A stretch of DNA of 59,194 nt, taken from Patescibacteria group bacterium (lineage in GTDB: Bacteria > Patescibacteriota > WWE3 > UBA101185 > 2-01-FULL-41-18). The position numbers were made by a program, and so were the translations under genes. Below are positions 3,464 through 26,400 of the stretch, piece after piece. Positions within the stretch are counted from its first letter, which is position 1, and each line of letters starts with the position of its first letter. The notes under the pieces were generated by a model. That model was not told the origin of the DNA. It saw only the letters and a program-made list of their open reading frames with translations, and did not search any database. The stretch is from assembly GCA_038064575.1 (NCBI GenBank), contig JBBTST010000011.1, positions 1 to 59,194 of the forward strand, given 5' to 3'.

Positions 3464-3505
3464 AAAGTCTTTACATTAAAAAAACAAAAAAGGTATCATT
3501 CCTTG

Positions 3506-5458: not shown

Positions 5459-7294
5459 TTAACTAGAGGCTTTTTTGTCTACAAAAACCCTTAGCCATAT
5501 CTCAACATTTATAAATCGCCAGATTACCATACTCTCTTCATGTTTTCCTTCATAAAAACCATCAACAAAAGTTTTTACATTGGTGTAGTTAAAATAGGGG
5601 CGGCTCTTAAAGGTCTCAGAGTCAATAATTTCATAAACTTTCTCCTTTTGGCTTTTAAACCAAGCAATCTCAGGCGTAGTAAAACCAACCTTCCATTTTC
5701 TCTCAGCTATATTTTTAGGAAGTAAATCTTTAAGAGCTTGTCTTAGAACATACTTTCCGCAACCGTGTCTGATAATTAAGTCGTTTGGTAGGGAGAATAT
5801 AAAGTTAATAAGGTCAATGTCTAAAAACGGGACTCTGCCTTCTATTGAAAACGCCATTGAATTTTTGTCTTCATATCTTAAAAGTGCCGGTACGCTGTCT
5901 AAAAATAAATCATCATGAAATCTTTTTTTAAGATCTTTTTTCTCAACCCTAACTACTTCTCCCAAATACTTGTGCGCAAATTCCTTATTAATTAAATCTT
6001 TTTCTTTCAAAGATCCGCTGAAGTTAAACTTTAACTTATCAAGAACAAGACTTCTGATTTGGGGCAGGCTTCCTATAAACTCTTTTAAAAAAAGTCCTAT
6101 CTTCAATTGGCTAAGTAGCTGCCTTAAATAAACCACGAGATAAGGATTATAACCAGCTAATACCTCATCAGCACCCTGCCCATCAAGTAGAACTTTGATT
6201 TTTTTACTTGCCTGCCTCATTACGCACCACTGAGAGTAAGGGCCACTTGATATTGTGGGCTCTTCCTGAGCATAAACAAAGTTCCTAAGCTCCTCAAACA
6301 AATCTTTACTGTTTGGGTAGACAAAATTTTTTTCAGTCTTGGTTTTTTCTAAAATCTCATTAATATAGTTTTGCTCATCATTTATTTCTTTTGGGAAAAC
6401 AGCTGAAAAAGTTTTTTGTTTATCCCCAATTTGGGAATCTTCCAAATTGGTTTTTAGTAACTCATCATTTATTACACAAACTATTGAAGATGAATCAAGT
6501 CCGCCTGAAAGACAAGATCCAACAGGGACTTCTGACATCAATCTGTCCTTTACACTTTTTATAAAAAGCTCTCTGAATTTTTGAAGATTCTCCTTTTCAG
6601 AAGCATGGTTGGTTTCTCTTTTTTGATACAAGTTCTCTGTATTGAAGTATCTATTTACTCTAATAGTATCTTCTGAGAACAGTGCGTACTCACCAGGTAG
6701 CAATTTATTTACCCCCTCAAAAAAAGTTTCATTCAGATCATCATGCTTTCTATGCTTTAAAAACCTGAAAACCATTCGGTTGTTTGGCAATGCTCTGAAT
6801 GAGGAGGCTTTCAAAAAAGCTTTTATTTCAGAAGAAAAGAGGTAACCTTCAGTAACCTTGCAGTAATAAAAAGGTTTGATGCCAAACTGGTCCCGAGCTG
6901 CAAAAACTTCATTTTTAGACACATCATAAATTGCAAAAGCAAACATACCATTAAACTTTTCAACACAAGATACGCCCCACTGCTCATAGGCATGTAAAAC
7001 CATTTCTGTATCTGAATGCGATTTAAAGTTGTGCCTCAGGCTTTTTAAGGTTTCCGAAAGTGCCAAGTAATTATATATTTCCCCGTTATAAACTATCCAT
7101 TTAGTAGCGTCTTCATTTGAGATGGGCATACCGCCCCCTGCAACATCAATGATGGCAAGCCTTCTACTACCTAGCCCCCCTTTACTTCCAATGAAAAAAC
7201 CCTCGCCATCCGGCCCTCTATGACCAATGGAATCTGCCATGCCTTTGAGAAGTTTTTCATCCGTAAAACCATACATACCCACAATTCCACACAT
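5459..7294 (-). CDS. asnB: Asparagine synthase (glutamine-hydrolysing), AsnB family
   Basis: 'MCGIVG' Ntn-amidotransferase N-terminus and the 'SGGLDSS' PP-loop. The track ORF extends to 7375, but the catalytic Cys must be residue 2, so the start is placed at the ATG at 7294. Confidence 0.85.
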   Translation of the reverse strand: MCGIVGMYGFTDEKLLKGMADSIGHRGPDGEGFFIGSKGGLGSRRLAIIDVAGGGMPISNEDATKWIVYNGEIYNYLALSETLKSLRHNFKSHSDTEMVLHAYEQWGVSCVEKFNGMFAFAIYDVSKNEVFAARDQFGIKPFYYCKVTEGYLFSSEIKAFLKASSFRALPNNRMVFRFLKHRKHDDLNETFFEGVNKLLPGEYALFSEDTIRVNRYFNTENLYQKRETNHASEKENLQKFRELFIKSVKDRLMSEVPVGSCLSGGLDSSSIVCVINDELLKTNLEDSQIGDKQKTFSAVFPKEINDEQNYINEILEKTKTEKNFVYPNSKDLFEELRNFVYAQEEPTISSGPYSQWCVMRQASKKIKVLLDGQGADEVLAGYNPYLVVYLRQLLSQLKIGLFLKEFIGSLPQIRSLVLDKLKFNFSGSLKEKDLINKEFAHKYLGEVVRVEKKDLKKRFHDDLFLDSVPALLRYEDKNSMAFSIEGRVPFLDIDLINFIFSLPNDLIIRHGCGKYVLRQALKDLLPKNIAERKWKVGFTTPEIAWFKSQKEKVYEIIDSETFKSRPYFNYTNVKTFVDGFYEGKHEESMVIWRFINVEIWLRVFVDKKASS

Positions 7295-7337
7295 AGTAAA
7301 AGCAGTATAACAGAAGCTTTTTAAAATCTGATAGAAT

Positions 7338-7640
7338 GTGAAGGTGAGCGCCAAAACAATAATACTGGCAAGCACTATAATTTTCTCTATGGCATGGACT
7401 ATAATGGCCTCTAGTGTGCTTTTGCCAAAAATGCCCTCTAATGGTTATTTTTGCCAAGACTCCAAATATGGCATAGAAGACTGCAGACCCTTTAGCTATG
7501 TAAACATTAAAGACTTGGTTTTGCTAACAAACCTAATAATAGGTACCATTTCACTTCATTCAATAATTGGTTCGGCAATAGGATTTCTGGGTGGTTTGAT
7601 AGTTTACTTAATTAGAGGCAGGGTTCTCAGAAAACTCTAA
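7338..7640 (+). CDS. Hypothetical small protein with a C-terminal transmembrane helix
   Basis: 100-aa ORF (GTG start; alternative ATG at 7389) filling the otherwise empty 350-nt gap. The C-terminal helix 'IIGSAIGFLGGLIVYLI' looks genuine. Confidence 0.3.
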   Translation: MKVSAKTIILASTIIFSMAWTIMASSVLLPKMPSNGYFCQDSKYGIEDCRPFSYVNIKDLVLLTNLIIGTISLHSIIGSAIGFLGGLIVYLIRGRVLRKL

Positions 7641-7646
7641 ATATAA

Positions 7647-8714
7647 TTATAAGTTTCCTTTTGGCAGATAATCTTTCAAATTTTCCTCAGTGATGGTTAC
7701 AGACTTGTGCTTCCCTTCCACTATTTCCTTGGCAACCTTCCTTGTCATATTTTCAAGAGTTCTATTTAAGCTTCTGATACCGGAATCAAAACCTAAAGGC
7801 CTTATAATGGACTGCCATAAATTAGGATCAATAATAAGCTCATCCTTATGTAATCCTGAATTCTCAACAACTTTAGGCAGAAGGTACTCTTTTGCTATAA
7901 CCTCCTTTTCATAATCAGTATAGGAGGGCATTTTTATAACTTCCATCCTATCAAGAAGCGCTGCCGTAAGAGTGCCCAAACCGTTTGCCGTGCAAATAAA
8001 TAAAACCCCTGACAAATCAACAGGATAATCAACATAGTGATCCCTAAACGAGCTGTTTTGATTGGGGTCCAGAATTTCAAGAAGAGTTGCCATGATATCC
8101 ATTCTCACTCCCGTGTCACCGCTGGCTTTTTCAATTTCGTCAAGTAGAATCAAGGGATTCATAACCTGAGACTTAACCAGAGCTTTAACAATTTGTCCTG
8201 GCTCTGCTTCAGGAAAGGCCTTACTTCTACCCCTAAGCTCAAGGACAGAACCAATACCACCCATAGATATTCTGATAAACTTTCTCCCAAGGGCTTCCGC
8301 CAATGAAATTGCAAAAGTAGTTTTTCCAATACCCTGAAGCCCCACAAAAAGGAGAATCGGAGCCCTGGATATATTCCCTTTCTCATCTCTAGTTCTTAGA
8401 ATTACTGTAGAAAGATATTGAAGAATTCTTTCCTTCACATCTTCAAGCCCATAGTGATGATCATCCAAAAGTTTTTTTGTAAGCGGGAGATTTAGATTAT
8501 CAACAGTTCTTTTCCCCCAAGGAATAGTAGTTATAAGATCAATATATCTGGCCATTGTGTCATAAGCTTCAGTATAACCACCAATCTTTGCCATACGATT
8601 GAGCCTATCAAGCATCCCTTCAATTTTATTTGTAAGCTCTCCAGGCATGGCCGGTGTGCTTTTCACCCTTTCAGACAGATCTTTAAGTTCTTTAAATATA
8701 AATTCTTCAGCCAT
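7647..8714 (-). CDS. Lon-type AAA+ ATPase module without a protease domain
   Basis: Walker A 'GLQGIGKTT', Walker B 'LILLDEIEK', and Lon-like 'HYGLEDVKERILQYL' and 'ELRGRSK...EPGQIVKAL'. The protein ends where the Lon S16 protease domain would begin. Confidence 0.7.
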   Translation of the reverse strand: MAEEFIFKELKDLSERVKSTPAMPGELTNKIEGMLDRLNRMAKIGGYTEAYDTMARYIDLITTIPWGKRTVDNLNLPLTKKLLDDHHYGLEDVKERILQYLSTVILRTRDEKGNISRAPILLFVGLQGIGKTTFAISLAEALGRKFIRISMGGIGSVLELRGRSKAFPEAEPGQIVKALVKSQVMNPLILLDEIEKASGDTGVRMDIMATLLEILDPNQNSSFRDHYVDYPVDLSGVLFICTANGLGTLTAALLDRMEVIKMPSYTDYEKEVIAKEYLLPKVVENSGLHKDELIIDPNLWQSIIRPLGFDSGIRSLNRTLENMTRKVAKEIVEGKHKSVTITEENLKDYLPKGNL

Positions 8715-8715
8715 A

Positions 8716-9678
8716 CTATTTAACTATAAAACCGGTTTTATTGATTTTTTCAACTTCCAATAAAAGCTTTGAAAAAGAGTCTGTGAATAAACCAAAACTT
8801 GCAAGGTCTCCAACAAATTTTTTGCTCCCATCAGTTGATAAATAGACCAAAAGTTTACCATTCCCGCTAAAAGATCTCTTTTCTGAAGCAAACTTGGGGC
8901 TTAAAGACAGGCTCAGAATCTTTTTTTCCTTAGCAGCAGTGATATCCTCAAGAAGCTCCTGATCAGATGCCAATACTAAAAAACCATATATGCTCTTTGC
9001 GGAAACGGAGGCTTCTTTGGAAGCGACTTCCAATAGAGTGTTATTAGACCCAAAGTTGCCATCAAATATGACCGCTGCTACTCTTTGATTCTCACCACTT
9101 TTAAGTGATTTATTTCTTGAAAACAGAGCAAATCCAGATGGGTTTTGTAAGATTATTTCCTTCAACAAATTAGCAAACTTGACATCCTCTTTAGTAAAAA
9201 CCTGATCAAAAATAAATTTGTGAATGCTTGTAAAATCGTGGCCTTCTATATAAAGATCTGAATCATAGGGAATCATTGAAGTATACTTCTCAAAGTCAAA
9301 AGACTCATCTTCCACCACATTCAAAAAGGCTGTACTCTCACTTTTTAAAACCTCCTGAATTAAGACTCCCTTAGTTGTTTCAGTTGAAGTGCTAAGCTTT
9401 CTTCCGCCAGTATTTAAAAAGTAGTAGTTATAGGAAGTATTTATTATAACAACAAAAGCAATTAAACTTCCAACAAAAAATAGCGCTTTTTTAAGAACTA
9501 GGATTGGCAAAGAGACTAGCATATCTTTAATAACAAGAGGAGGAGGTGATGAAACATTAAGTTGTGAGACATTGCTTAAATTTATAAATTCATCCGGAAG
9601 ACGGGAACCACAATTAAGACAAAAATACTTCTCAGAAAACCCCAAATCATTCTTACACTGCGGACAGAGTCTTTCCAT
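8716..9678 (-). CDS. Zinc-ribbon, single-pass membrane protein, hypothetical
   Basis: N-terminal 'CPQCKN...CLNCGS' zinc ribbon, one TM helix ('FFVGSLIAFVVII') and a roughly 230-aa C-terminal domain. Its stop lies 1 nt before the Lon-like ATPase start. Confidence 0.55.
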   Translation of the reverse strand: MERLCPQCKNDLGFSEKYFCLNCGSRLPDEFINLSNVSQLNVSSPPPLVIKDMLVSLPILVLKKALFFVGSLIAFVVIINTSYNYYFLNTGGRKLSTSTETTKGVLIQEVLKSESTAFLNVVEDESFDFEKYTSMIPYDSDLYIEGHDFTSIHKFIFDQVFTKEDVKFANLLKEIILQNPSGFALFSRNKSLKSGENQRVAAVIFDGNFGSNNTLLEVASKEASVSAKSIYGFLVLASDQELLEDITAAKEKKILSLSLSPKFASEKRSFSGNGKLLVYLSTDGSKKFVGDLASFGLFTDSFSKLLLEVEKINKTGFIVK

Positions 9679-15923: not shown

Positions 15924-16499
15924 ATGTCAAGGGCGATTTTCTATGTCACTCAATTAACAGCTTATTTTACTGTTGGTTTAATAATAAGAATTATTATCAG
16001 ACCAAAGGTCAAAAGGCTATTCCAAAAGATAAACAAGCCGCTAATTATAGCCTCAAATCATCAGCATTTTTTAGATCCTTTTTTTGTCATGGCGAGTTTG
16101 TCTTTTAAGGACTTTCTGAAATGCCTCCCAATAAGATTTATTACGGCAAATAAATACATGAAATTTCCATTGCTCCCCTTACTTCTCACCTTTGGCTGTT
16201 ATAAAGCAAATAAAGAGGAGAACTACTCATGCACAGATGAATCAATTAAGTTTATTAAAAATGGGTTTACAGTATTTATCTTTCCTGAAGGAGGTATAGT
16301 TAAAGAAAAGCTCAACAACCCAAAGATTGGCGTTGGGGTTATAGCCATAAAATCAACTGCCAAAGTTTTGCCCGTAAATGTATCCTTAAACAACCTTGTA
16401 CTCAAAATAACTTTTGGTAGTTTCTTACTCTCAAAATCGGTGGAAGACCCAAAAGCCTTTGCAAACAAAGTTCTTAAAGTAATATATGAATACGAATAG
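15924..16499 (+). CDS. PlsC-type (lysophospholipid/glycerol-phosphate) acyltransferase
   Basis: HX4D motif in 'ASNHQHFLDPF' and block III 'FPEGG'. It overlaps the next gene by 14 nt. Confidence 0.7.
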   Translation: MSRAIFYVTQLTAYFTVGLIIRIIIRPKVKRLFQKINKPLIIASNHQHFLDPFFVMASLSFKDFLKCLPIRFITANKYMKFPLLPLLLTFGCYKANKEENYSCTDESIKFIKNGFTVFIFPEGGIVKEKLNNPKIGVGVIAIKSTAKVLPVNVSLNNLVLKITFGSFLLSKSVEDPKAFANKVLKVIYEYE

Positions 16500-17415
16500 A
16501 AAGATTGTACTTATTACCGGAGGAACTGGCAGACTAGGTACTCCTTTAATTAATAACCTCTCAAAAGATTATGAAAAGATCATAGTTCTTACAAGAAATA
16601 CAAATCTCAAAGGGAAAAACAATAAAATAAGTTTTTTGAACGCAGATATCACAAAAGAGAACTTAGGTCTCAACAGCAACGTTTATTCACAATTAACAAG
16701 CAACATAACAGAAATAATTCATATGGCGGCAAACACAAGCTTCACAGCATCATATCAAAAAGCAGCTTTGGTAAATATTAAGGGCACAAAGAACATACTG
16801 GGTCTGGCTAAAAAAACAAGGAATCTGAGAAAGTTTATACACTTTAGTACAGCGTTTATAAGCGGGGAAAGAGAGGGTGACATATTCGAGGAAGGACTTG
16901 AGCACAATGCAGGATTTGTTAATAATTATGAGTTAACCAAATATCAAAGCGAACTTATTGCTAGAGAGCATTTTTCCCAACTTCCAATTTCTGTAATTAG
17001 ACCGGTTCTAATTTTAACTAATGACAGTAAAAACATATTCAACGTCATGCTTGATAAAATCAAACAAAGCAAATTCTTCATAATTACGGGGTGTCCAGTA
17101 ACAAACTTGCATCTCATTCCTCTAAATAGCTTTGTTAAAAGAGTTTCTTCATCTCTTAATGATCTTCAGTCCGGAAAAGCTTATCACTTTGCAAATAAAC
17201 CGGACCAATTAATGACTCTTAGAGAACTTGTTGCTTTTGTAGAAAAGCTAATGAACAAAAAGATTATGATTATTAATCATAAAATTCAACTTGGAAAACT
17301 TTATAACTTAACAGGTCAGCTTTTTCACAGTAAAACTTTTTTCTCGGAAGACAAAAATAATTATTTGGGAGGAAAAAAACAAATTTTTTCCCATATTGAG
17401 GAGTATCTTAAATAG
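16486..17415 (+). CDS. Thioester (acyl-CoA/acyl-ACP) reductase-like SDR ('male sterility'/NAD_binding_4 type)
   Basis: 'LITGGTGRLG' Rossmann motif. 'ADITKENLGLNSNVYSQLTSNITEIIHMAANTSF', 'VNIKGTKNIL' and 'FSTAFISG' match the reductase-domain pattern. YxxxK is present in 'NNYELTKYQSE'. Confidence 0.6.
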   Translation: MNTNRKIVLITGGTGRLGTPLINNLSKDYEKIIVLTRNTNLKGKNNKISFLNADITKENLGLNSNVYSQLTSNITEIIHMAANTSFTASYQKAALVNIKGTKNILGLAKKTRNLRKFIHFSTAFISGEREGDIFEEGLEHNAGFVNNYELTKYQSELIAREHFSQLPISVIRPVLILTNDSKNIFNVMLDKIKQSKFFIITGCPVTNLHLIPLNSFVKRVSSSLNDLQSGKAYHFANKPDQLMTLRELVAFVEKLMNKKIMIINHKIQLGKLYNLTGQLFHSKTFFSEDKNNYLGGKKQIFSHIEEYLK

Positions 17416-17417
17416 AT

Positions 17418-18017
17418 ATGTTAGAAATTATAATTTTTTATTTTCTTCCACTTCTTAGTGCTAATGTCATACACCATAGCATTGTTATTAAAAAGAACTT
17501 ATTGGCAACTCTAGCCATACCCCTTGATTTAGGAAGCTACCTTAAGGGCAAAAGACTATTAGGGAAGTCAAAAACATTCAGGGGTTTTGTAGTGATAGCT
17601 TTTATCTCTACAAGCTTAACTTTTCTGTTAACAATGCTTGTTCATGAAAAAGATTTTGTATCAGTTACTCTGAGGAGTTTTATCATAAGTACTGGTTATA
17701 TGTTTGGTGAGCTTCCCACAAGTTTTTTAAAAAGAAGATTTAACATCAATCCCTCTCAACAGGCTGGCGGTATTAAAGGGTTTTTTTTCTACAGTTTAGA
17801 ACAAATTGATTCGGTAACAGTAGCGGTAGCCTTATCAGGTCTAATGAACAATCTAAGCATATATCAAATGACAATGCTATTGATCTTAGGAACGGCCACT
17901 CACATAGTGATTGATTTATCTTTATATTTTAAGGGGTATAAAAAACTGATTTCAAAACCTTTCTTTTTAACGCTTCTCACAAAAGAGAGAAGAAATACAA
18001 AGCTCCCCCGGCAATAG
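17418..18017 (+). CDS. CDP-archaeol synthase (CarS)/DUF46-like CTP-transferase membrane protein
   Basis: 'PLDLGSYLKGKRLLGKSKTFRG' and 'GELPTSFLKRRFNI...SLEQIDS' parallel the archaeal CarS signatures (P.D.G....G.R.LG.GKT.RG and GD...SF.KRR......LDQ.D). The protein has 5-6 TM helices. Confidence 0.55.
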   Translation: MLEIIIFYFLPLLSANVIHHSIVIKKNLLATLAIPLDLGSYLKGKRLLGKSKTFRGFVVIAFISTSLTFLLTMLVHEKDFVSVTLRSFIISTGYMFGELPTSFLKRRFNINPSQQAGGIKGFFFYSLEQIDSVTVAVALSGLMNNLSIYQMTMLLILGTATHIVIDLSLYFKGYKKLISKPFFLTLLTKERRNTKLPRQ

Positions 18018-18570
18018 GAACAAAAAGGTTATCTGTGCCATTTAAACTGGAAGCTTCAATAACTGAAAGAATAAACGAATAAAAAATGCTAAAAGGAAGC
18101 ATCACTCCAAAAGAACTATATACAAAGGTGGATACAACAATAAAAGACAAAGACCCTGCTAAACTCTTTTTTATAAACATTGGGCTTCTCACACAATAGC
18201 CCACCAAAAAGGCAAAAGTGTCGCTAAAGGCTAAAAGTATTACTGAAATCTGAAAAGTGGTAACAGATCTGGGCCAATACAAAAAAGCACAAATGCTGAG
18301 AGCTAAAGGCATTATATAGGATCCCTTTGTTTTTCTAGAAACGCCAGTAACACTTTTTAGAAAAGCATACTTTTCTAAAAAGAAAAATAAAACAGCAAAC
18401 AGAACTCCAATGGATAATGCAGAATTTAAACTTAAAAAATAAGGGAAAAAGTAAACCACAACACCAGCAAAAAGATGAGAAAACTTCCTTGTGAACTCCG
18501 GCTCCACACCAAGTTTCAAAAGAACTTCCCCAACTAGAAATATCAAAAGTAGAAGTACAATCAGGAACAT
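17977..18570 (-). CDS. Polyprenol/phytol/dolichol-kinase-like membrane protein (CTP-transferase-1 superfamily)
   Basis: Multi-pass membrane protein with 'FTRKFSHLFAG' near the N-terminus and 'EASSLNGTDNLFVPIAGG' near the C-terminus, as in phytol/dolichol kinases. It is the last gene of the minus-strand operon. Confidence 0.5.
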   Translation of the reverse strand: MFLIVLLLLIFLVGEVLLKLGVEPEFTRKFSHLFAGVVVYFFPYFLSLNSALSIGVLFAVLFFFLEKYAFLKSVTGVSRKTKGSYIMPLALSICAFLYWPRSVTTFQISVILLAFSDTFAFLVGYCVRSPMFIKKSLAGSLSFIVVSTFVYSSFGVMLPFSIFYSFILSVIEASSLNGTDNLFVPIAGGALYFFSLL

Positions 18571-19067
18571 CTTCTTAGATAGCTTTCAAACTTGTTTTTT
18601 CTTAATTTCATAAAGTTTTGGATAGCATGCCTGTTTAAATACCTTAAATAAAGCTTAAGTTTAACTATAAGAGGCAACAGCGAAAATTCAATCTTTTCAA
18701 AACCCCTCTCTGTAATAAACTTTGCAACACCCTCATTTGATGTTGTTGCAAGGGTGTTAGTCCCTGACAAATCTTCAAAGGCTTTAAGGATCAGGCCTCT
18801 GCTCACTCCCTCCCGTCTAAACTGCGGATATACATATAAATTTGAAACCACACCATAACTTGCCGTAATCTTTTCTCTTTCAATCCAGCCTATTAAAGTT
18901 TTATTGACATAAGCAAAAACAAACGTTTCTTTCACCAAGTTCTTTTTAAGAAGTCCTTTTGATCTTATTCCAAGTGTTTTTTCTGAACAACAAATCTTAT
19001 AGATAGTATCAATAAGTAAGTCCGGATTTGTAAAAGGTGGAAAGGACCCATCTAGGCATGCTATCAT
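18561..19067 (-). CDS. GNAT-family N-acetyltransferase
   Basis: 'LYVYPQFRREGVSRGLILKAFEDL' matches acetyl-CoA binding motif A (Q/R-x-x-G-x-G/A type). It overlaps both neighbours, by 4 and 10 nt. Confidence 0.6.
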   Translation of the reverse strand: MIACLDGSFPPFTNPDLLIDTIYKICCSEKTLGIRSKGLLKKNLVKETFVFAYVNKTLIGWIEREKITASYGVVSNLYVYPQFRREGVSRGLILKAFEDLSGTNTLATTSNEGVAKFITERGFEKIEFSLLPLIVKLKLYLRYLNRHAIQNFMKLRKNKFESYLRRCS

Positions 19068-19648
19068 TTCACCCCCATTGCAGAATAAACATAAAAAGAG
19101 AAAAGCCCAAAAGAGAGCATTAATAAAATATAAAAAATGGCTGAAACCTTAGGAAAGATAAACTTCTGTATCATCAGAAAACCCAGTATTAAATTAGAAA
19201 CCATAATTTGATATGTTTTCCCTTGAAAGGGCAAAAACCAAATAAAAAAAAGGCTATAAAGACTAAAAACAACAGGCAAACCCATATATCCTCTGGTTTT
19301 GCCTATATATGAATACCCGAATGTGTTAAATCTGATCAGTCTAAACACTCCACAGCAGACAAAAATAAAAAGCGACAGCTTTTCTCCAAAACTCAATGCA
19401 AAAGCACTCAAGAAAAAAATGGTGGGATAAACCAGATAAATAAAAATATCGGACGCGGAATCCAACTGCCTGCCAAAATTGGATTCTTCTTTGAAAAATC
19501 TTGCCACGTATCCATCCAAACCATCAAGCACAGCTGAAAAAAAAGCTAAGGCAATTGATAGCGTGTAGGAGCCTTGCACTGCAAGATCGATTGCAAACAA
19601 GACCAGCATTAAGGCCAGAAATGTCATGGCATTGGCTTTATGTTTCAT
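19064..19648 (-). CDS. CDP-alcohol phosphatidyltransferase (phosphatidylserine/archaetidylserine-synthase-like)
   Basis: Complete D-G-x2-A-R-x8-G-x3-D-x3-D motif in 'DGLDGYVARFFKEESNFGRQLDSASD'. The 194-aa protein is multi-pass membrane. Confidence 0.8.
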   Translation of the reverse strand: MKHKANAMTFLALMLVLFAIDLAVQGSYTLSIALAFFSAVLDGLDGYVARFFKEESNFGRQLDSASDIFIYLVYPTIFFLSAFALSFGEKLSLFIFVCCGVFRLIRFNTFGYSYIGKTRGYMGLPVVFSLYSLFFIWFLPFQGKTYQIMVSNLILGFLMIQKFIFPKVSAIFYILLMLSFGLFSFYVYSAMGVK

Positions 19649-21311
19649 TTATATACACTCTTCCGCTTTTTAGATCAACTTCTATAGTATCCCCATTTTT
19701 GATAACATCAGTTGCTCCAGAAACAGATACCACACAGGGAAGCCCATACTCTCTAGCAACAACTGCCGCATGGGAAAGAAGTCCTCCCCTTTCCACAATA
19801 ACACCCCTAAGAAGCGGGAATATTATTGTCCAACCCGGGTCAGTTTGGGAAGTCACCAGTATTTTATCTCTAAATGAGGCGTTATAATCAAATTCTTTTA
19901 GTACTAAAGCTTTTCCATTCAGCCTCATTGTGTCCCCAGTTGATGCTATCTTTCCCACCAGTTTACCCAAAATTTCCTTCTTATTAACGGTTAGTGAGAA
20001 ATCCAATTTTTTTCTTTTAGCTAATCTTTTATTTAAATCATCAGAAGTAAGCTTTGTCTCAATTCTTCTTGGAGGGTTTATACCTTTGAAAAGCTTAAAG
20101 AATCTTTTTCTTTTTCCTATCACTCGTTTTAAGAAGTCTTTCTTTTTACCAGCCAAAAGCATAAGCAGTTCTTCAACCTTCAAATAAAAAATGTCTTCTT
20201 GGTTATCAATTAAATGCTTATTCTTTAATCTTTGTGCCATCTCCAAAAAAACTTCTCTGGCAAAAGCAAAAATTTGAGCTCTTCTAAACCTTGCGTGTTC
20301 CCGTCTTGCAATTGAAGTGCTAACCCACCCCTTCAGAAAGGAAAAGGGCAAACTTATAAACCCCGATTCTCTTTCTTGTGCTTTGTCAGAAGAGAGCTTA
20401 GAGGGCACCTTTAGAGCATTTACAAGTATAGTAAGGACAAAGCTTTCATTTTGCTCAAAAGTTTTAGATTCTAATTTAAGCTCGCCCGGAACTTTGCTTC
20501 CAAAGTCTTTTATATATGAAACAACTAACTTTTTGAAAGCAAAATCAAAATTTTCAACATAAATCTTTTTATGCAAATTCTCAATAGAGTCAGTTAAAAA
20601 GATTTCTTTAAGTTTGGGATTGGCAGTTATAACTTCAAGCATCTCCATAAGTTTTTTTGATGGCTCTACACTTTTGATCAGCTGAGAACTCTTGAGAAGG
20701 GCAATAAGATTGGAATCGCCCTTTGACTGAGCTAGCCTGGAAAGCAAGCCAACACTAACCATAACTGCAAAATCATTAACTATGGGAATTCTAAAATCCT
20801 TAGTCATATTTTTTTCTGCATTTAAATAAAGTTTGCAAAGAGCAGAATCAGACAATAAAGAAAGATTTTCAGATTTTAAAAGCAATAATTTTTTGTCAAA
20901 ACTTTTAGTAAAAGCTCTAATTAATAAGGGCATAAATATAAAACTGAGGGTTATACAACACAAAGAATACAAAAAATGCAGAAGGGGTTGAGCATTAACC
21001 TTTTGTTTATAACTTTTTTCTACCCCAATCATCTGTTCAAGAAATTGTCTGGTGGATGAATAGAGAGGTAAAAAACTGAGGAGTCGGTGCCAATTTTTAA
21101 TGTGGTAATACATTCTCCCCCCAATATGAACAACAAGGTTATCAAAAAGCTTTGGGACTGAGGCAACTTTTTTTTCAGGCACCCCGAGTGCAAAACAAAA
21201 TTCTTTATAAACTCCGGAATATACTCTTTTTGCAAAGGAAAAAGTTAGAGTTGATGAAATACCTGAGTAGCTCTCTATCAAATTAGAGTTGTCATAAATA
21301 TACCTATTCAT
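19638..21311 (-). CDS. PEP-utilizing-enzyme mobile (phospho-His swivel) domain protein with a novel N-terminal region
   Basis: The C-terminal roughly 90 aa contain 'VIVERGGLLSHAAVVAREYGLPCVV', the swivel-domain His motif. The N-terminal roughly 450 aa are helical with no ATP-grasp motifs that I recognise. Confidence 0.6.
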   Translation of the reverse strand: MNRYIYDNSNLIESYSGISSTLTFSFAKRVYSGVYKEFCFALGVPEKKVASVPKLFDNLVVHIGGRMYYHIKNWHRLLSFLPLYSSTRQFLEQMIGVEKSYKQKVNAQPLLHFLYSLCCITLSFIFMPLLIRAFTKSFDKKLLLLKSENLSLLSDSALCKLYLNAEKNMTKDFRIPIVNDFAVMVSVGLLSRLAQSKGDSNLIALLKSSQLIKSVEPSKKLMEMLEVITANPKLKEIFLTDSIENLHKKIYVENFDFAFKKLVVSYIKDFGSKVPGELKLESKTFEQNESFVLTILVNALKVPSKLSSDKAQERESGFISLPFSFLKGWVSTSIARREHARFRRAQIFAFAREVFLEMAQRLKNKHLIDNQEDIFYLKVEELLMLLAGKKKDFLKRVIGKRKRFFKLFKGINPPRRIETKLTSDDLNKRLAKRKKLDFSLTVNKKEILGKLVGKIASTGDTMRLNGKALVLKEFDYNASFRDKILVTSQTDPGWTIIFPLLRGVIVERGGLLSHAAVVAREYGLPCVVSVSGATDVIKNGDTIEVDLKSGRVYINET

Positions 21312-22209
21312 ACTTAAGAAAGATTATCATGCCAAGATATACAAAGACACAATAAATGGAAATGCCATAAAAAAGAGTTTTTGAGGAATCACGGCTCTTA
21401 TGATTTAAATAATTAAGTACAAAGGGCAGAGGAAAAGAACTTAAAAAGATACTAAAGATAAGATGCCTTGACAATAAATAGCTTAAGCTTTCCATAAAAA
21501 GAAATAAGGATACAGATAGCAGGCAGCTTAATGCCACAAGTACTATGCTCACAAAATGTAATCCGTATCTTGCACTGTATGTGTCTTTGGAAGCATTTTC
21601 ATCAAGCTTGAAACGCGATTTTCTGGCAACCTCTATAAGCACAATAGTAAGAATAAAGAGTATAAGTTGCCAAAACATAGATCTGTTAATTGTAAAAGGG
21701 TTATTTATCCCAAAAAAAAAGAGCCAAAAATAAACAAATACAAAAACTAACTCGTGCAAGATAAGGTACAGAAGAAGTTTGCTTTTTATGAAGGCTCCTA
21801 CAAAAAATTCCTTATACATAAAAAATGTATAAATAGAAGCAAGTACAAAAACCGTTAAAGAAATTCCGTAACCTAAGAATAGGGTAATCAATAACTCTAT
21901 TAAAAAGGCTGTTATACCTAAGAGTTTCAATTCCAACAGTGAGAGTAGACCTTTCTGAATGGGTCTATCAGGATAATATTTAGAGTCATGAGCAAAATCT
22001 TTTAGCTCGTCCAAAACCCTTAATTTAAACAAAAATATAAAAAACATAAAGGCTCTTAAAACTACCAGTTTATAGCTGTGCTCAAAACCAAGTCGCCAAC
22101 TCAAAAGGCTTACACTAAGTCCTACTAAAAGAGTAAGAAGTAAAACTGAAAAGAAAGGAAAACGAAGGTGAACATATTGCCAAAGCCTCAATAAAAAGTT
22201 TTTTTTCAT
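21304..22209 (-). CDS. UbiA-superfamily-like polyprenyltransferase membrane protein
   Basis: About 8 TM helices. The first Asp-rich motif is 'LDELKDFAHDSKYYPDRPIQKGLLS' (compare NDxxDxxxD...RP..SG). The second region is 'KLDENASKDTYSARYG'. Confidence 0.5.
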   Translation of the reverse strand: MKKNFLLRLWQYVHLRFPFFSVLLLTLLVGLSVSLLSWRLGFEHSYKLVVLRAFMFFIFLFKLRVLDELKDFAHDSKYYPDRPIQKGLLSLLELKLLGITAFLIELLITLFLGYGISLTVFVLASIYTFFMYKEFFVGAFIKSKLLLYLILHELVFVFVYFWLFFFGINNPFTINRSMFWQLILFILTIVLIEVARKSRFKLDENASKDTYSARYGLHFVSIVLVALSCLLSVSLFLFMESLSYLLSRHLIFSIFLSSFPLPFVLNYLNHKSRDSSKTLFYGISIYCVFVYLGMIIFLKYE

Positions 22210-22231
22210 ATGTAATTGTAGCTTTGTTGAC

Positions 22232-22642
22232 TTAGGGCTTTGGGGCAGAAGATAAAACGCTTGATACCAATTCCGACTTCCAACCTTTACTTATTAATGA
22301 GGTGCTTATTAGTTCATCATTCATTCCAGATGCTCTTGCTTTTGCAATATAGTCAAGAAGCACACCCTCCTCCTTATTCTTAAGCTTAGTAGAAACAGAT
22401 ATCAAAATTTCTTTCTCAATATAAGCTCTAGTGCTTGGAATAAGGTTTGGTATAACTAGCGCTAACATTATGTGCCCTATAAGAAGAGACAATCCAAACC
22501 ACACAAAAGCCCCCATCCCCGCAGTACACACAATAGAAAAAAACGCCAAAGTCATCACCTGATCAAATCCGCCAGAAGATAAAGCCAAAAAGATAACTAA
22601 AACCGGAAGACCAACTAAAGTTTTAATTAAATCTCTTTTCAT
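22232..22642 (-). CDS. Hypothetical membrane protein (3 TM helices plus a soluble C-terminal domain)
   Basis: 136-aa ORF that is co-directional and tightly packed in the operon. Confidence 0.5.
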   Translation of the reverse strand: MKRDLIKTLVGLPVLVIFLALSSGGFDQVMTLAFFSIVCTAGMGAFVWFGLSLLIGHIMLALVIPNLIPSTRAYIEKEILISVSTKLKNKEEGVLLDYIAKARASGMNDELISTSLISKGWKSELVSSVLSSAPKP

Positions 22643-22645
22643 AAC

Positions 22646-23695
22646 TTACAGCCTACTTTCCAGAATACAGTCGTGGTAAAAAACAAACGCAAGAATCAAA
22701 GCAAAATACAAGGGTATTGCCATAGCAACTTCAACTGGAATATGTGTAATAACTGTATTAAACCCTGAAAAACTTTGAGTGGCTGTTGGTCCATAAACTC
22801 TGATCCCATAATTCATGAATAGAGATTCTAACGGAAAGGCCACTACAGAAGTCAATCCCACAGAAAGAAGAAATTTCCACCTTGCGGAAAGAGTATAAAA
22901 AAGGTCTTCAACTACAAGAACTGACAGCGTAACCAAACAAACCCAAACTATACTCACCAAGAAACTTATATCCCTATAAAAATAAGACCAGCTAGGAAGA
23001 TTTCTATTGTAAACCATAGGCTCTATCATAAGTTCAAAGAGAAAAACTCCAATTAGAGACAGAATAAAAATTCTAAGAGTGCTTTTCTTTTTTGAGGGAA
23101 TGATTGGGCGTTTATCATAATCAAGCGTCATGTATTTATAAAAAGAGATAATTAAAAGAGAAAACACTGAGACATAATACAAAGCCTCAATTGGGGTACC
23201 CATAAAGGAGGTACCGCTTAAAACCTCCTTAACTTCCAAAGAGTATTCCCTTATACCAACACTAAGAACTACTGATTCAGCACTAAAGACTATTGCCGTT
23301 GTAATAATAAGATACACAGCAAATCTCAAATATTCTTTTCTTTTTTTCAGTAGAGTGTCAACAAGAGTCGTTACACCTAAAAATAGAGCTGTCCAAATTA
23401 AAGAAAGAATCCAGCTAATATCAAGATAAATATATGCAAATTTTCCAAGATGGCTATTTGTCCACATAGGAGCCGTGAACAATTCAAAAAGGAGCACCCC
23501 CGTAAAAGTTATTACGAACCTCATAAAAAACCTATTAACCATCTTGTAAACTACAAAGAGTGTGGCAAGACTTAAAAGCCCATAAATAAGTTCAAAAAGA
23601 AAGGCTTGAGAGGTAAGAGTCTTATCAAAAGAACATAAAGAACCAAGCAAACAGGGATCAATTACAGGCGCTTTTATAATAGAACTAAAATCCAT
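22646..23695 (-). CDS. Internally duplicated polytopic membrane protein (2 x ~150 aa), possibly lycopene-cyclase-domain-like
   Basis: Two halves align at a 150-aa offset: 'GVLLFELFTAPM..DIS..AES..GIREY..TPIE' versus 'GVFLFELMIEPM..DIS..LES..GIRVY..IPVE'. Confidence 0.6.
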   Translation of the reverse strand: MDFSSIIKAPVIDPCLLGSLCSFDKTLTSQAFLFELIYGLLSLATLFVVYKMVNRFFMRFVITFTGVLLFELFTAPMWTNSHLGKFAYIYLDISWILSLIWTALFLGVTTLVDTLLKKRKEYLRFAVYLIITTAIVFSAESVVLSVGIREYSLEVKEVLSGTSFMGTPIEALYYVSVFSLLIISFYKYMTLDYDKRPIIPSKKKSTLRIFILSLIGVFLFELMIEPMVYNRNLPSWSYFYRDISFLVSIVWVCLVTLSVLVVEDLFYTLSARWKFLLSVGLTSVVAFPLESLFMNYGIRVYGPTATQSFSGFNTVITHIPVEVAMAIPLYFALILAFVFYHDCILESRL

Positions 23696-23713
23696 ATCAG
23701 TTATATAATAAAA

Positions 23714-24880
23714 CTATTCAGGGCAACCGCAAGATTTTCCTACTCTTACTGAAGCTTGACTGCGAGTTGCAGAATCCTTGACCTTACAACCGCCCCATTT
23801 GGCTCTTAAAAAATCTGGAGAAGATGAAAGTTCTTCCCAAATTGCGAAAAGTGGTTTTTCCAATATATTTCCAAAAACAGCATGATTGAAATCACAAGAG
23901 CAAACATCTCCATAAGGGATTATATAGAAATAGCTTGTTCCACAGGAGCAACCCACACTCCTAAAACTTGTTGCATACGCAAAAAGTAAAACTCCAGGGT
24001 AGGAACTGTCATTATTATACTTTTTGGATTCCTCGATCATTGCTTCAACCCATGCGTTGTTATCTACAAGGTCTTCTCTTTTTTTAAGCCGTCCTGTAGG
24101 AAGCGAGTCAAAAATCAAGACTTCATGAATACCAATTTGCTTTCCAAACTCAATAATTTTGTCAAATTCCCCTTTTGCATAAGACTCGGGAGTTAAAGTT
24201 GCGGAGATGCCACATGACATCCCAAATTTCTTGGCTTCAAGAATACCCTCAACCGCTTTGTCAAAAAGTCCTTTCCTTCCCCTTAACATGTCATGGATTT
24301 CAGGATTTGCCGAATCAAGACTTATATAAACGCTATCAAGCCCTGCTTTTTTGTAAGAGAGTATATTCTCCTTAAGCAGGAAACCGTTTGTAAACATAAC
24401 CGTTGTTGATTGGTTCTTATCCACACTTGCAATAATTTCAGGCATATCCTCTCTTAATGAGGGTTCCCCACCAACAAAATTGATAGTGGAAACACCAAGT
24501 TCCTGCGCGTCTCTAATAAGTTTTTTTGCTTGTTCTAAATTTAAAACTTTTCTTGATTTGTCTTCAACTGCGCTGAAAAAACTGCAATGCTGACAATTTG
24601 CATTGCAAATATCATTTACCGCAAAACTAATAAGATTTGGTAGATTTTTGTTTTGTATACCTTTGTACACAGCTCTTGCCAGAAAGTTTGCAGCGGGTTT
24701 ACTAAAAAGCGCCGGTGTAGAAAGCGAATAAACAGGAAAGCCACCCCTATAATGAATCACTTTGTTATGATTTAGATAAATTTTATAAAGAATATCAACA
24801 TAGTCTACAGTGTAGCCAAGAGTCCTTTTTGCAATAAAATATTTGAGTTTTAATCTGTTGAGTAATTGGTTAATAATCAT
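23714..24880 (-). CDS. Radical SAM enzyme with a SPASM/twitch-like C-terminal Cys cluster
   Basis: CX3CX2C in 'CNANCQHC' and the 'GGEPSL' SAM-binding motif. The C-terminal 'GCSCGTSYFYIIPYGDVCSCDF...WGGCKV...CGCPE' suggests an auxiliary-cluster domain. It is the first gene of the minus-strand operon. Confidence 0.8.
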   Translation of the reverse strand: MIINQLLNRLKLKYFIAKRTLGYTVDYVDILYKIYLNHNKVIHYRGGFPVYSLSTPALFSKPAANFLARAVYKGIQNKNLPNLISFAVNDICNANCQHCSFFSAVEDKSRKVLNLEQAKKLIRDAQELGVSTINFVGGEPSLREDMPEIIASVDKNQSTTVMFTNGFLLKENILSYKKAGLDSVYISLDSANPEIHDMLRGRKGLFDKAVEGILEAKKFGMSCGISATLTPESYAKGEFDKIIEFGKQIGIHEVLIFDSLPTGRLKKREDLVDNNAWVEAMIEESKKYNNDSSYPGVLLFAYATSFRSVGCSCGTSYFYIIPYGDVCSCDFNHAVFGNILEKPLFAIWEELSSSPDFLRAKWGGCKVKDSATRSQASVRVGKSCGCPE

Positions 24881-24924: not shown

Positions 24925-25521
24925 TTGTATCATGTGAAGGTGGGTTTTTCCTTAGCAGAAGCAGACAATCAAAAAAATGAGGTACTGAATGCGGAAGTCA
25001 AAAAGGAAGTAGAAACACTCCTACAAAATGTTGCCGGCTCCGCACGGTTTCATAACGCTATGAGTGGTTCTTATACTAGCGGAAAGTATTCTTTAGCAGA
25101 TCTCTCATCCGAAGCATTAGAAACCCTTTTAGGACCATATTATTTGAACACAAATTTACCAGACAAGCCAAGTTTTAGTAGCCCAACCACAATACCACTT
25201 TTGACTGCGGCTAAAATTAAGGACGAGTTCTTTCTTTACTTAGAGTCCCCTGAACTTGGAGGAAAGGAGTTGGACACCACCAACAGAACAGAACCAATTA
25301 TTCTGGAAATAAGAAGTTATATTAACCAAAGACAAAGGTCATATGAAACTACCAGGAACCGATATGAGGAAATAGCTAGTAAGGCTTTAGAAAAGACCAA
25401 AGCCTGGTTTTCACCCGCTTTAGGTATACCAGCAACTGATGCCTTTATCAAACTTAGGGTACTTAACAAGCTAGCCAAAAACGAGCTCATTGATAAGGCA
25501 TGGGTTGAAGGGGAAAAATAG
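24925..25521 (+). CDS. Hypothetical protein (no recognisable domain)
   Basis: 198-aa ORF with a TTG start (GTG alternative at 24934). Its stop lies 3 nt before the next ORF. Confidence 0.45.
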   Translation: MYHVKVGFSLAEADNQKNEVLNAEVKKEVETLLQNVAGSARFHNAMSGSYTSGKYSLADLSSEALETLLGPYYLNTNLPDKPSFSSPTTIPLLTAAKIKDEFFLYLESPELGGKELDTTNRTEPIILEIRSYINQRQRSYETTRNRYEEIASKALEKTKAWFSPALGIPATDAFIKLRVLNKLAKNELIDKAWVEGEK

Positions 25522-25524
25522 GGT

Positions 25525-26400
25525 TTGGATGATTTAGTACAAGCTGAAAGGCTTTCAAGAAAACTTACAATTGGTTGCGAGATTGAAATACCCTACACAG
25601 GCAGATCGCCTGCATATGGTTCCATCAAAGATTTAAAGCCTGCAAGTTATATTCATTTTGCGGAAAGTTCGAGGATTCTAAATATCCTAGACGTTCCATA
25701 TGAAACAGATAAACAAGGCGAAGCAGCTATACCTAAAACTAGAAACATAAAACTTCAACTGGCTATAATTCAGGAACTTCACCAAATGGGTTTTTTACCT
25801 CTCGATTTTGATAAACAGCATCAGTTGAATTTCACACTGCATGTCAATATAGGTATTCCTAAAGAATTAATAGATTTTCTACAAAGTACAAACTATGAGG
25901 GTACAAAAAGAAACACACCTTATGAAAGTAGGGAGAAAACATCCGATTTTGTAAAGCAAGAAGTATTACTACTCTCAACGTTGTTTGGTATTGCTTATAC
26001 CACGCCTAACAGAATAACAAAAGGTGCCTATACAATACCTGCTGAAGTAAAAGGCCATGGAGAAGATCTTAGAATTGAGTTTAGAAATCAAACTTATGTC
26101 CCAGAAAATGACAATGAAGCTCTTCTTGAAAACATGAGATTAACAACTCTAGGTTTTATGCTTGCGCTTTCACAAAATGGTAATGATGAAGTGAAAGAAG
26201 CTTATCAAGCATTTCTTAATACAACTTTTGACGACATAGAAAAAGAGCTGGGAGGGAGAACACTTAAAGGCGTACAACTTGGATTTAGCAACCATGCGGG
26301 AAAAGCTTGTGAAAATGAAACAGTAAAATCTAAAGTTGCGCTAAATATAGCCACTTTTGCAAAAATTGTTGAAAACTCAACTAAAGGTACCTACTCATAA
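25525..26400 (+). CDS. Hypothetical protein, possible glutamine-synthetase-fold carboxylate-amine ligase (amidoligase)
   Basis: Three spaced motifs, 'LTIGCEIEIPY', 'FTLHVNIGIP' and 'LRIEFRNQ', resemble the G.E.E / H.H.G / E.R pattern of GCS2/amidoligase enzymes. It has a TTG start and is coupled to the upstream ORF. Confidence 0.35.
   Translation: MDDLVQAERLSRKLTIGCEIEIPYTGRSPAYGSIKDLKPASYIHFAESSRILNILDVPYETDKQGEAAIPKTRNIKLQLAIIQELHQMGFLPLDFDKQHQLNFTLHVNIGIPKELIDFLQSTNYEGTKRNTPYESREKTSDFVKQEVLLLSTLFGIAYTTPNRITKGAYTIPAEVKGHGEDLRIEFRNQTYVPENDNEALLENMRLTTLGFMLALSQNGNDEVKEAYQAFLNTTFDDIEKELGGRTLKGVQLGFSNHAGKACENETVKSKVALNIATFAKIVENSTKGTYS

Follow-up and report, generated by a model that had tools for sequence, protein, structure and literature searches.

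An eleven-gene cluster of a Patescibacteria bacterium as one variant of a widespread modular locus: a candidate pathway for an isoprenoid-containing membrane lipid

Positions 1-59,194 of contig JBBTST010000011.1 of a Patescibacteria group bacterium (assembly GCA_038064575.1), here called the window, contain a block of eleven genes that we consider a candidate pathway for a membrane lipid. The DNA originates from a metagenome of Hainich groundwater collected on a 0.1-µm filter (ENA ERZ1292625). According to the open reading frame (ORF) list of the window, the block spans about 9 kb (positions 15924-24880): three plus-strand genes converge on eight minus-strand genes, which run from 24880 to 17977, and the 3´ ends of the two convergent operons share 41 nucleotides. 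The minus-strand genes are separated by gaps of 3-22 nucleotides or overlap by 4-11 nucleotides, and the overlapping start and stop codons indicate translational coupling. A preliminary description of this DNA had given the same eleven genes with the same coordinates and spacing. Nine of its eleven family assignments held in profile searches, while the kinase label for a 197-amino-acid protein and the assignment of a membrane protein with ten transmembrane (TM) segments were not directly confirmed. The active-site motifs are intact in all recognisable enzymes of the block, as a motif check of the window proteins revealed, and the closest homologues of the block are found in Woykebacteria and other Microgenomates. 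The block consists of the following genes:

15924-16499, plus strand: PlsC-type HX4D acyltransferase, 191 amino acids (Pfam Acyltransferase PF01553, E 1e-10; TIGR00530 AGP_acyltrn, E 3e-11, below cutoff)
16486-17415, plus strand: FAR/thioester-reductase-type SDR, 309 amino acids (NAD_binding_4, E 1e-36; TIGR01746, E 9e-30)
17418-18017, plus strand, convergent with the main operon: CarS-like CTP:lipid-phosphate cytidylyltransferase, 199 amino acids (Pfam CarS-like PF01864, E 4e-13)
17977-18570, minus strand: polytopic membrane protein, 197 amino acids, near-core (no Pfam or NCBIfam match of its own)
18561-19067, minus strand: small GNAT acyl- or acetyltransferase, 168 amino acids (PF00583, a weak match with 23.9 bits against a cutoff of 20.7; PF13508 and PF13673, E about 3-6e-5)
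19064-19648, minus strand: CDP-alcohol phosphatidyltransferase, Pss-like, 194 amino acids (PF01066, E 1e-18, 68.2 bits against a cutoff of 22)
19638-21311, minus strand: rifampin-phosphotransferase-type (PEP-synthase-like) phosphotransferase, 557 amino acids (NF004881, model positions 323-891 of 898, E 3e-103)
21304-22209, minus strand: UbiA-superfamily prenyltransferase, 301 amino acids (PF01040, E 3e-7; NF010118, E 5e-8)
22232-22642, minus strand: protein of 136 amino acids with about three TM segments and a short soluble tail (no Pfam or NCBIfam match)
22646-23695, minus strand: internally duplicated (5+5 TM) membrane protein, 349 amino acids (hhalign of one half against the other, 99.9% probability, E 3.5e-35)
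23714-24880, minus strand: radical SAM/SPASM enzyme, 388 amino acids, first gene of the operon (Radical_SAM PF04055, E 5e-28, 98.6 bits; SPASM PF13186, 26.7 bits; both above cutoff)

Related loci were collected by scanning an alignment of homologues of the 557-amino-acid protein against one genome per GTDB species, which yielded 80 loci. The six-frame ORFs of these loci were searched with the window proteins and with hidden Markov models (HMMs) of their families; unless stated otherwise, counts refer to the 52 loci with a full-length homologue of the 557-amino-acid protein. In these loci, each from a different species, the other cluster families recur in fixed order. About 25 loci in which similarity to the protein is confined to its swivel-domain end provide an internal control, and apart from one radical SAM and one reductase match they contain none of the families. 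Thus, the co-conservation that had been proposed as a test in the preliminary description was found for gene content as well as for gene order. The 52 loci span many Patescibacteria lineages, Elusimicrobia, Dehalococcoidia and DPANN archaea (Nanoarchaeota and Woesearchaeota).

The comparison of the loci revealed a modular organisation. The core consists of the UbiA gene, translationally coupled to the gene for the rifampin-phosphotransferase (Rph)-type kinase, and usually a gene for a CTP-transferase-like membrane protein of about 200 amino acids. A head-group module is attached to this core, consisting either of the CarS-like enzyme and the Pss-like transferase, as in the window, or of a BtaA-like DUF3419 protein. 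Two further modules are optional, namely the radical SAM/SPASM enzyme with the duplicated, lycopene-cyclase-like protein and the small TM protein, and the PlsC-type acyltransferase with the FAR-type reductase.

The UbiA gene was found in 51 of the 52 loci and lies on the same strand as the kinase gene in 48 of the 52; in the window the end of the UbiA gene, with its stop codon, shares 8 nucleotides with the beginning of the kinase gene. The sole real match of the UbiA family profile in the PDB was the archaeal DGGGPS of M. jannaschii (6M31, E 0.003, over the full length), so that the weak individual match has backing from the family as a whole. The first Asp-rich motif, D67ExxDxxxD75...RP, is invariant in the family. 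The 557-amino-acid protein encoded next to it contains, according to Pfam, an Rph_4th and a PEP-utilizers domain (E 8e-23 for the latter), that is, the substrate-binding domain and the phosphohistidine swivel domain. Its family profile matches the rifampin phosphotransferase (RPH) of Listeria (5FBS/5HV1, E 3e-45), and models of PigC/RedH match as well. The motif GGxxSH514 with the phosphohistidine H514 is invariant in the family. The PEP-utilizing swivel domain named in the preliminary description is therefore present, but the protein is more exactly described as an RPH-type kinase without ATP-grasp domain. It is not a complete RPH enzyme, since the N-terminal ATP-grasp (PPDK_N) domain is missing. 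With RPH and the PigC/RedH branch it shares the Rph_4th and swivel domains, and by analogy it likely catalyses the ATP-dependent phosphorylation of a hydroxyl group or other oxygen via a phospho-His intermediate. Unlike these enzymes, which act in antibiotic resistance and pigment synthesis, the cluster kinase is encoded in a lipid-synthesis context beside UbiA; from RPH it differs also in that the ATP-grasp domain is missing here and encoded by a separate gene in many relatives. In a planctomycete locus, the full-length Rph-like kinase beside UbiA is accompanied by a second protein with PPDK_N and PEP-utilizers domains but without Rph_4th (732 amino acids), whose gene (6611-8809) immediately precedes that for radical SAM.

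The 197-amino-acid membrane protein is encoded in 41-45 of the loci. The invariant residues of its family include R28, H32, G83, D117, E172, G178 and D180. An AlphaFold2 (AF2) model was obtained with a mean predicted local distance difference test score (pLDDT) of 95.8, and neither the sequence profile nor a Foldseek search with this model gave a match in the PDB. An exhaustive search at E<=1e-3 showed a large family of 6952 clusters (50% identity). Members also occur outside of the cluster, standing alone and convergent with a P-type ATPase gene, a genomic context that is uninformative on function.

The CarS-like protein clearly belongs to its Pfam family (50.3 bits against a cutoff of 22) and matches NF003114 with E 7e-19, although with 68 bits against a cutoff of 148. 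The only PDB match of its family profile is CDP-archaeol synthase (5GUF, E 3e-9). The gene is present in 13 of the 52 loci, always accompanied by the CDP-alcohol transferase gene and, as in the window, on the opposite strand in all 13. The CDP-alcohol transferase carries the full motif D42GxDGxxAR-x8-G-x3-D-x3-D67 at residues 42-67, and the best-scoring models, both below cutoff, are archaetidylserine synthase (TIGR04217, E 5e-19) and PssA (TIGR00473, E 5e-18). It is thus a putative head-group transferase, for which these two models suggest serine as acceptor. Its gene occurs in 17 loci, in all of them on the same strand as the Rph-like kinase gene and immediately downstream of it.

In 31 loci a BtaA-like protein with a DUF3419 domain (PF11899, E 2e-27) is encoded in place of the CarS-like enzyme and the CDP-alcohol transferase; the window contains no DUF3419 gene. 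BtaA moves the 3-amino-3-carboxypropyl group from S-adenosylmethionine (SAM) onto diacylglycerol. DUF3419 is the domain of the betaine-lipid synthase BTA1/BtaA (PMC10685587). The CDP-alcohol transferase (17 loci) and DUF3419 (31 loci) do not occur together in any of the 48 loci. Because of this mutual exclusion the two modules look like alternative routes to an amino-acid head group, with serine transferred via a CDP-activated lipid and homoserine via SAM. The replacement of the CarS module by DUF3419 further implies that the product of the core would be a diradylglycerol-like lipid that can take a homoserine-type head group. The likeness to betaine-lipid synthesis is limited to these sister variants and does not concern the window. 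The sister variants differ from betaine-lipid synthesis in that no BtaB methyltransferase was identified in them and a GNAT gene follows instead.

The small GNAT of the window fills the slot that is held in most loci by a GNAT of about 347 amino acids, and hhalign related it to the family of this large form with 93.8% probability. A GNAT is encoded in 47 or 48 of 52-56 full-length loci (small form in 9, large form in 38-39), and the gene for the large form lies directly downstream on the same strand in 38 of 38 loci. Some loci also encode an AMP-binding acyl ligase. That the GNAT follows both head-group modules, at times together with the acyl-AMP ligase, suggests that it acylates the amine of the head group. 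Aminoacyl-PG synthases and FemAB-type dupGNATs were considered as relatives of the large form, but the profile search matched only generic GNAT N-acetyltransferases.

The radical SAM enzyme contains the motif C92x3C96x2C99 and eight further Cys residues. No subfamily cutoff was reached by this protein, its best curated models NirJ2 and AhbD scoring far below cutoff, and the best matches among solved structures are the decarboxylase BlsE (E 4e-17), SkfB and, over the core only, GDGT-MAS (7TOL). An assignment as a tetraether synthase of the Tes/GDGT-MAS or Mss type was rejected, since the match to 7TOL (E 2.3e-10) is confined to core residues 80-227 and the protein is too short with its 388 amino acids; the published criterion for Tes is E<1e-50 and a length >400 amino acids (PMC8941075). 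The gene is found in 23-25 of the 52 loci. The enzyme is 63-66% identical to cyanobacterial orthologues (Leptolyngbya PCC 7376, Gloeotrichia), whereas UbiA and the kinase reach only about 30% there, which points either to a very strong constraint or to a recent transfer of the module of radical SAM, 10-TM and small TM genes.

The internal duplication of the 10-TM protein, noted in the preliminary description, is borne out by the alignment of its two halves, and in five DPANN loci the gene is represented by two half-size genes. Altogether, 19 of the 52 loci encode this protein. Thirteen of 40 family members match Pfam Lycopene_cyc (PF18916, best E 3.5e-5), which points to an isoprenoid substrate, and we therefore regard the protein as a putative distant relative of the CrtYc/Yd-type lycopene-cyclase domain. 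With the lycopene cyclases CrtYc/Yd and the C50 cyclases CrtYe/Yf, which contain this domain, the family shares, besides the Pfam matches, repeated membrane domains with conserved Glu/Pro motifs. It differs from them in being a 5+5 TM duplication that is paired with a radical SAM/SPASM enzyme, and in having no carotenoid genes nearby. Its AF2 model is confident (pLDDT 90, predicted template modelling score 0.88), and Foldseek found no structural neighbour in the PDB (best E 0.23). The 136-amino-acid protein travels with the radical SAM/10-TM pair: homologues are encoded at the same position in 6-9 loci and also in cyanobacteria (30% identity to a 149-amino-acid protein of Leptolyngbya).

The acyltransferase contains the motifs H46-x4-D51 and FPEG120, and homologues were found in about 20 of the loci. 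The reductase, with its motifs G12xxGxxG and Y148xxxK, is closest among solved structures to the MxaA reductase domain (E 5e-11) and to fatty acyl-CoA reductase (7EOZ, E 1e-10) and has homologues in 28 loci. Both families had been recognised correctly in the preliminary description, where they were taken as a bacterial pair; the pair is however an accessory module and not part of the core. It resembles the ether-lipid module of eukaryotes and myxobacteria (GNPAT/FAR/AGPS; ElbD) in combining an HX4D acyltransferase and a NAD_binding_4 reductase in overlapping neighbour genes. In contrast to this module, ORF scans of the window detected no AGPS-type alkyl-DHAP synthase, carrier domain or CoA-ligase domain. 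An assignment as an ElbD/AGPS-type module was therefore rejected: only the acyltransferase and reductase domains are present, and no other ORF of the window carries the required domains.

Homologues of the 10-TM protein also led to clusters in complete genomes, belonging to organisms that are cultured or have large genomes. A minimal row of six genes is present in Leptolyngbya sp. PCC 7376 (CP003946.1, about 2,399,000-2,407,500; Lepto7376_2132 and its neighbours), encoding radical SAM, 10-TM protein, the 149-amino-acid protein, UbiA, a full-length protein with PPDK_N, Rph_4th and PEP-utilizers domains, and DUF3419. Gloeotrichia has a gene set of the Leptolyngbya type with the large GNAT and an AMP-binding ligase in addition, and in a planctomycete the radical SAM, 10-TM, small TM, UbiA, Rph-like and DUF3419 genes are found together. 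The streamlined genomes emphasised in the preliminary description are thus only part of the picture: the cluster does occur in loci of the candidate phyla radiation (CPR) and of DPANN archaea, but also in cyanobacteria, Dehalococcoidia and Planctomycetota. In the five DPANN loci the ATP-grasp domain is fused to the kinase, and homologues of the 197-amino-acid protein, the CarS-like enzyme and the CDP-alcohol transferase are absent at the locus. The Parcubacteria-type loci with the BtaA version also contain two ORF families without Pfam match, of about 221 amino acids (17 loci) and about 232 amino acids (13 loci).

We propose that the block represents one form of a modular cluster which is widespread and serves to build or remodel a membrane lipid with an isoprenoid part, a reading to which we assign a probability of roughly 55%. 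The more general claim, that the genes encode a pathway to a membrane lipid in which an isoprenoid is used at one step and the head group is transferred after CDP activation, appears to us considerably safer and is probably correct. As judged from the sequences, the isoprenoid link would follow from the first motif of UbiA and its likeness to DGGGPS, from the Lycopene_cyc matches among the relatives of the 10-TM protein, and from the CarS profile, which leads to CDP-archaeol synthase. Neighbouring genes in the related loci are likewise specific for lipids and include CMAS-type cyclopropane-fatty-acyl-phospholipid synthases (12 loci, Parcubacteria-type with the BtaA version), acyl ligases and SRPBCC proteins. 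The lipid system envisaged in the preliminary description is therefore supported as a candidate and refined, while the ether chemistry and the product stay at candidate level.

A possible course of the pathway can be outlined. The 197-amino-acid protein and the Rph-like kinase would convert a long-chain prenol of scavenged or endogenous origin into a phosphorylated donor, from which UbiA would move the prenyl chain to a hydroxyl group of a glycerol-phosphate-based acceptor that is acylated by the PlsC-type enzyme. The reductase would supply or process an acyl or alkyl part, resulting in a mixed acyl/prenyl analogue of phosphatidic acid. This analogue would be activated with CTP by the CarS-like enzyme, the CDP-alcohol transferase would add L-serine to the CDP-lipid, and the GNAT would acylate or acetylate the serine amine. 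The radical SAM enzyme, together with the lycopene-cyclase-like and the small TM protein, probably modifies the isoprenoid tail; alternatively, radical SAM might decarboxylate the amino-acid head group, and both roles are speculative. The product that we infer, like several of the steps, from these assignments would be an isoprenoid membrane lipid that probably combines acyl and prenyl chains and bears serine, or homoserine in the BtaA type, as a head group modified by the GNAT. The order of the steps as given here is doubtful, the odds being clearly against this exact sequence. It is somewhat less doubtful, but still a tentative proposal, that the cluster makes a class of hybrid lipid new to science. 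UbiA would attach its isoprenoid chain, using a donor made by an Rph-type kinase; a fatty-acyl chain would be present as well, and the head group would be serine or homoserine with an acylated amine. Its tail or head would be tailored further by the radical SAM enzyme and a membrane protein of new fold. Many CPR bacteria and DPANN archaea would then owe their membranes to such a lipid, self-made or based on salvage.

Several observations weigh against the proposed isoprenoid lipid pathway. With 30.4 bits the UbiA protein of the window stays under the cutoff of Pfam (34.2), and it deviates from the canonical second Asp-rich motif (E193xxRK...D209TY instead); in the alignment to DGGGPS the family shows Lys and variable residues at the position of the second DxxDxxxD, and with this motif altered the donor may be unusual. 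The 10-TM protein of the window itself has no Lycopene_cyc match at E<=1. The polyprenol- or phytol-kinase-like label which the 197-amino-acid protein had received in the preliminary description found no match by the protein itself; five relatives (2 of 19 and 3 of 10) match CTP_transf_1 (PF01148) with E 0.009-0.04, and hhalign of the family against the CarS-like family gave a probability of only 14%. Its motifs may resemble those of VTE5 and Sec59, but Foldseek and hhalign lend the kinase assignment no support. The label therefore stays a lead, and the protein may, on weak support, belong to the superfamily of CTP-dependent polyprenol kinases and cytidylyltransferases.

An ATP-grasp domain is absent not only from the kinase but from the entire window, even at E<=10, in a search that used an HMM derived from those relatives in which the gene is split and included two unannotated ORFs next to the operon. 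Among the relatives, the domain is fused to the kinase in one large subgroup that includes the DPANN loci, is encoded by a separate nearby gene in 14 loci, and is not detectable in the loci of the closest relatives of the window. Since a split gene shows that the domain can act in trans, the ATP-grasp partner of the window kinase is probably encoded elsewhere in the genome. Furthermore, no genes for GGGPS, glycerol-1-phosphate (G1P) dehydrogenase, the methylerythritol phosphate (MEP) or mevalonate pathway or fatty-acid synthesis, which would point to the acceptor and the source of the prenyl chain, are located in the window; for GGGPS and G1P dehydrogenase this refers to Pfam or NCBIfam scans of ORFs of at least 120 amino acids in these 59 kb of the genome. 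The PlsC-type acyltransferase and the reductase are missing from many loci, which makes their position in the pathway uncertain.

The use of two phosphorylations to feed a UbiA enzyme would be similar to phytol salvage. In plants, the phytol kinase VTE5 and the phytyl-phosphate kinase VTE6 feed the UbiA-family enzymes VTE2 and ChlG, and by analogy we propose that two prenol phosphorylations feed the UbiA transferase here as in plant and cyanobacterial phytol salvage. However, the second kinase would be of the Rph/PEP-synthase type and not VTE6/DUF92, and the relation of the 197-amino-acid protein to VTE5 and dolichol kinase is weak.

Instead of a bulk membrane lipid, the cluster could make a specialised isoprenoid metabolite or a polyprenyl-phosphate-linked envelope precursor, such as a modified carrier lipid or a pigment-like compound which, in the style of C50 carotenoids, a UbiA elongase and a cyclase would produce. 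C50 carotenoid synthesis pairs a UbiA enzyme (CrtEb) with the lycopene-cyclase-domain proteins CrtYe/Yf, and a comparable pairing is seen here, where the 10-TM family touches Lycopene_cyc; in addition, the cluster is found in cyanobacteria and planctomycetes with large genomes that already make normal lipids. Yet no phytoene synthase, phytoene desaturase or glycosyltransferase gene was found in or beside the clusters, and the CarS/CDP-alcohol module, the BtaA-like proteins, PlsC, CMAS and the acyl ligases are typical of glycerolipid assembly. That a cluster of 9 kb is kept in the presumably tiny genomes of CPR and DPANN organisms would also argue for a central role. We therefore regard a specialised product as unlikely, although it is the strongest competitor of the membrane-lipid reading.

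Less likely still is the horizontal acquisition of a canonical diether pathway of the archaeal type, in which UbiA would be DGGGPS, CarS would produce CDP-archaeol and the transferase archaetidylserine, resulting in an archaeol-like lipid. The CarS-like profile that matches 5GUF alone, DGGGPS as the best solved relative of UbiA, archaetidylserine synthase as the top score of the CDP-alcohol transferase and the occurrence of the cluster in DPANN archaea would all fit such a pathway. But all three matches lie far below the equivalog cutoffs, neither GGGPS nor G1P dehydrogenase is encoded in the window, and the DPANN loci themselves lack CarS and the CDP-alcohol transferase. Moreover, fatty acyl chains are the substrates of several of the enzymes encoded (PlsC and the FAR-type reductase; CMAS and acyl ligases in relatives), and the obligatory Rph-like kinase and the BtaA-like alternative are foreign to the archaeal pathway. 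What remains is a similarity in logic that the preliminary description had already noticed and that the profile searches sustain, as the key proteins fall into the proposed families: in its mode of working the cluster parallels the late phospholipid pathway of archaea (DGGGPS, CarS, archaetidylserine synthase), whose three enzyme superfamilies recur here in an equivalent sequence, but it is not a member of that pathway. It adds the Rph-type kinase, the 197-amino-acid protein and the GNAT as obligatory partners, and it contains bacterial acyl-lipid enzymes (PlsC, FAR-type reductase; CMAS in relatives) and a head-group module that can be exchanged for a BtaA-like one.

A fatty-alcohol route to an alkyl ether seems about equally improbable. 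Here the reductase would deliver a fatty alcohol, the 197-amino-acid protein and the Rph-like kinase would phosphorylate it, UbiA would alkylate glycerol phosphate with the resulting alkyl (di)phosphate and PlsC would acylate the second position. The pair of GNPAT and FAR is part of ether-lipid synthesis in eukaryotes and myxobacteria and is mirrored by the PlsC-type and FAR-type proteins, and the non-canonical second motif of UbiA could fit an unusual donor. Known UbiA enzymes, however, use allylic diphosphates or phosphoribosyl pyrophosphate, and we know of no precedent for the transfer of a saturated alkyl chain. In addition, the reductase and PlsC are absent from many loci, among them the minimal cyanobacterial cluster, and with a lycopene-cyclase-like partner an isoprenoid is the more plausible substrate. 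That membrane-protein genes without any relation came to lie together by chance, finally, is extremely improbable and was rejected: several family matches are individually weak (UbiA, GNAT, the 197-amino-acid protein), but the genes are co-conserved in content and order in dozens of loci from several phyla and both prokaryotic domains, the control loci are nearly empty, and start and stop codons overlap.

We found no description of this cluster in the full-text literature; most subscription journals lie outside the coverage of that search, and an earlier description is possible. In the literature searched, no characterised operon of this kind was encountered, as the preliminary description had supposed. 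The nearest published remark concerns a UbiA gene near MEP genes in some Woesearchaeota (PMC8204110). CPR bacteria and DPANN archaea have generally been described as lacking membrane-lipid biosynthesis, and the origin of their lipids is open (bioRxiv 10.1101/465690 / PMC7242380; PMC8941075). A conserved lipid cluster of about 9 kb in these ultra-small organisms is a concrete and testable candidate for the source of their membrane lipids. The lipid divide is touched as well, since archaeal-type enzymes (UbiA, CarS) are combined here with bacterial-type ones (PlsC, FAR; in relatives also CMAS and BtaA). If the hybrid-lipid proposal is true, the product would be a natural mixed lipid across the divide between bacteria and archaea. 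A rifampin-phosphotransferase-type kinase would have been recruited to lipid metabolism. The cluster also holds a membrane protein whose confident structural model has no solved neighbour. Since a minimal version is present in the culturable Leptolyngbya sp. PCC 7376, genetics and lipidomics are feasible without culturing a CPR organism.

The remaining genes of the window are housekeeping genes, including those for RNase J, PNPase, IF2, NusA, DnaK/DnaJ/GrpE/HrcA, TrmD and LepA as well as MurJ, sortase, LCP, TIM/PGK/GAPDH, UvrD and KsgA; together with the homologues in Microgenomates, this content makes it likely that the DNA is of CPR/Patescibacteria origin. Divergent from the radical SAM gene lies an adjacent pair of plus-strand ORFs (24925-25521 and 25525-26400, 198 and 291 amino acids), which have neither a Pfam or NCBIfam match nor a homologue in any related locus and do not appear to be part of the cluster. 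At a distance of 11 kb from the cluster, the plus strand encodes a flavoprotein of 358 amino acids (3503-4579) that weakly resembles the geranylgeranyl reductase family (TIGR02032, E 1.1e-9, 38 bits against a cutoff of 159) and also weakly matches digeranylgeranylglycerophospholipid reductase and BchP/ChlP. Enzymes of the geranylgeranyl reductase type saturate isoprenoid chains; the protein was nevertheless rejected as a cluster member, because no homologue was found in any related locus. Between the genes for triose-phosphate isomerase and phosphoglycerate kinase a minus-strand ORF of 321 amino acids is located (45961-46926), which resembles, at a score far below cutoff (E 9e-13), only the N-terminal region of aldehyde ferredoxin oxidoreductase. 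A minus-strand gene at 4766-5446 encodes a protein of 226 amino acids with a domain like that of F420-0:gamma-glutamyl ligase (CofE; Pfam E 1e-10), which is unexpected in a CPR-type genome, where F420 synthesis is improbable.

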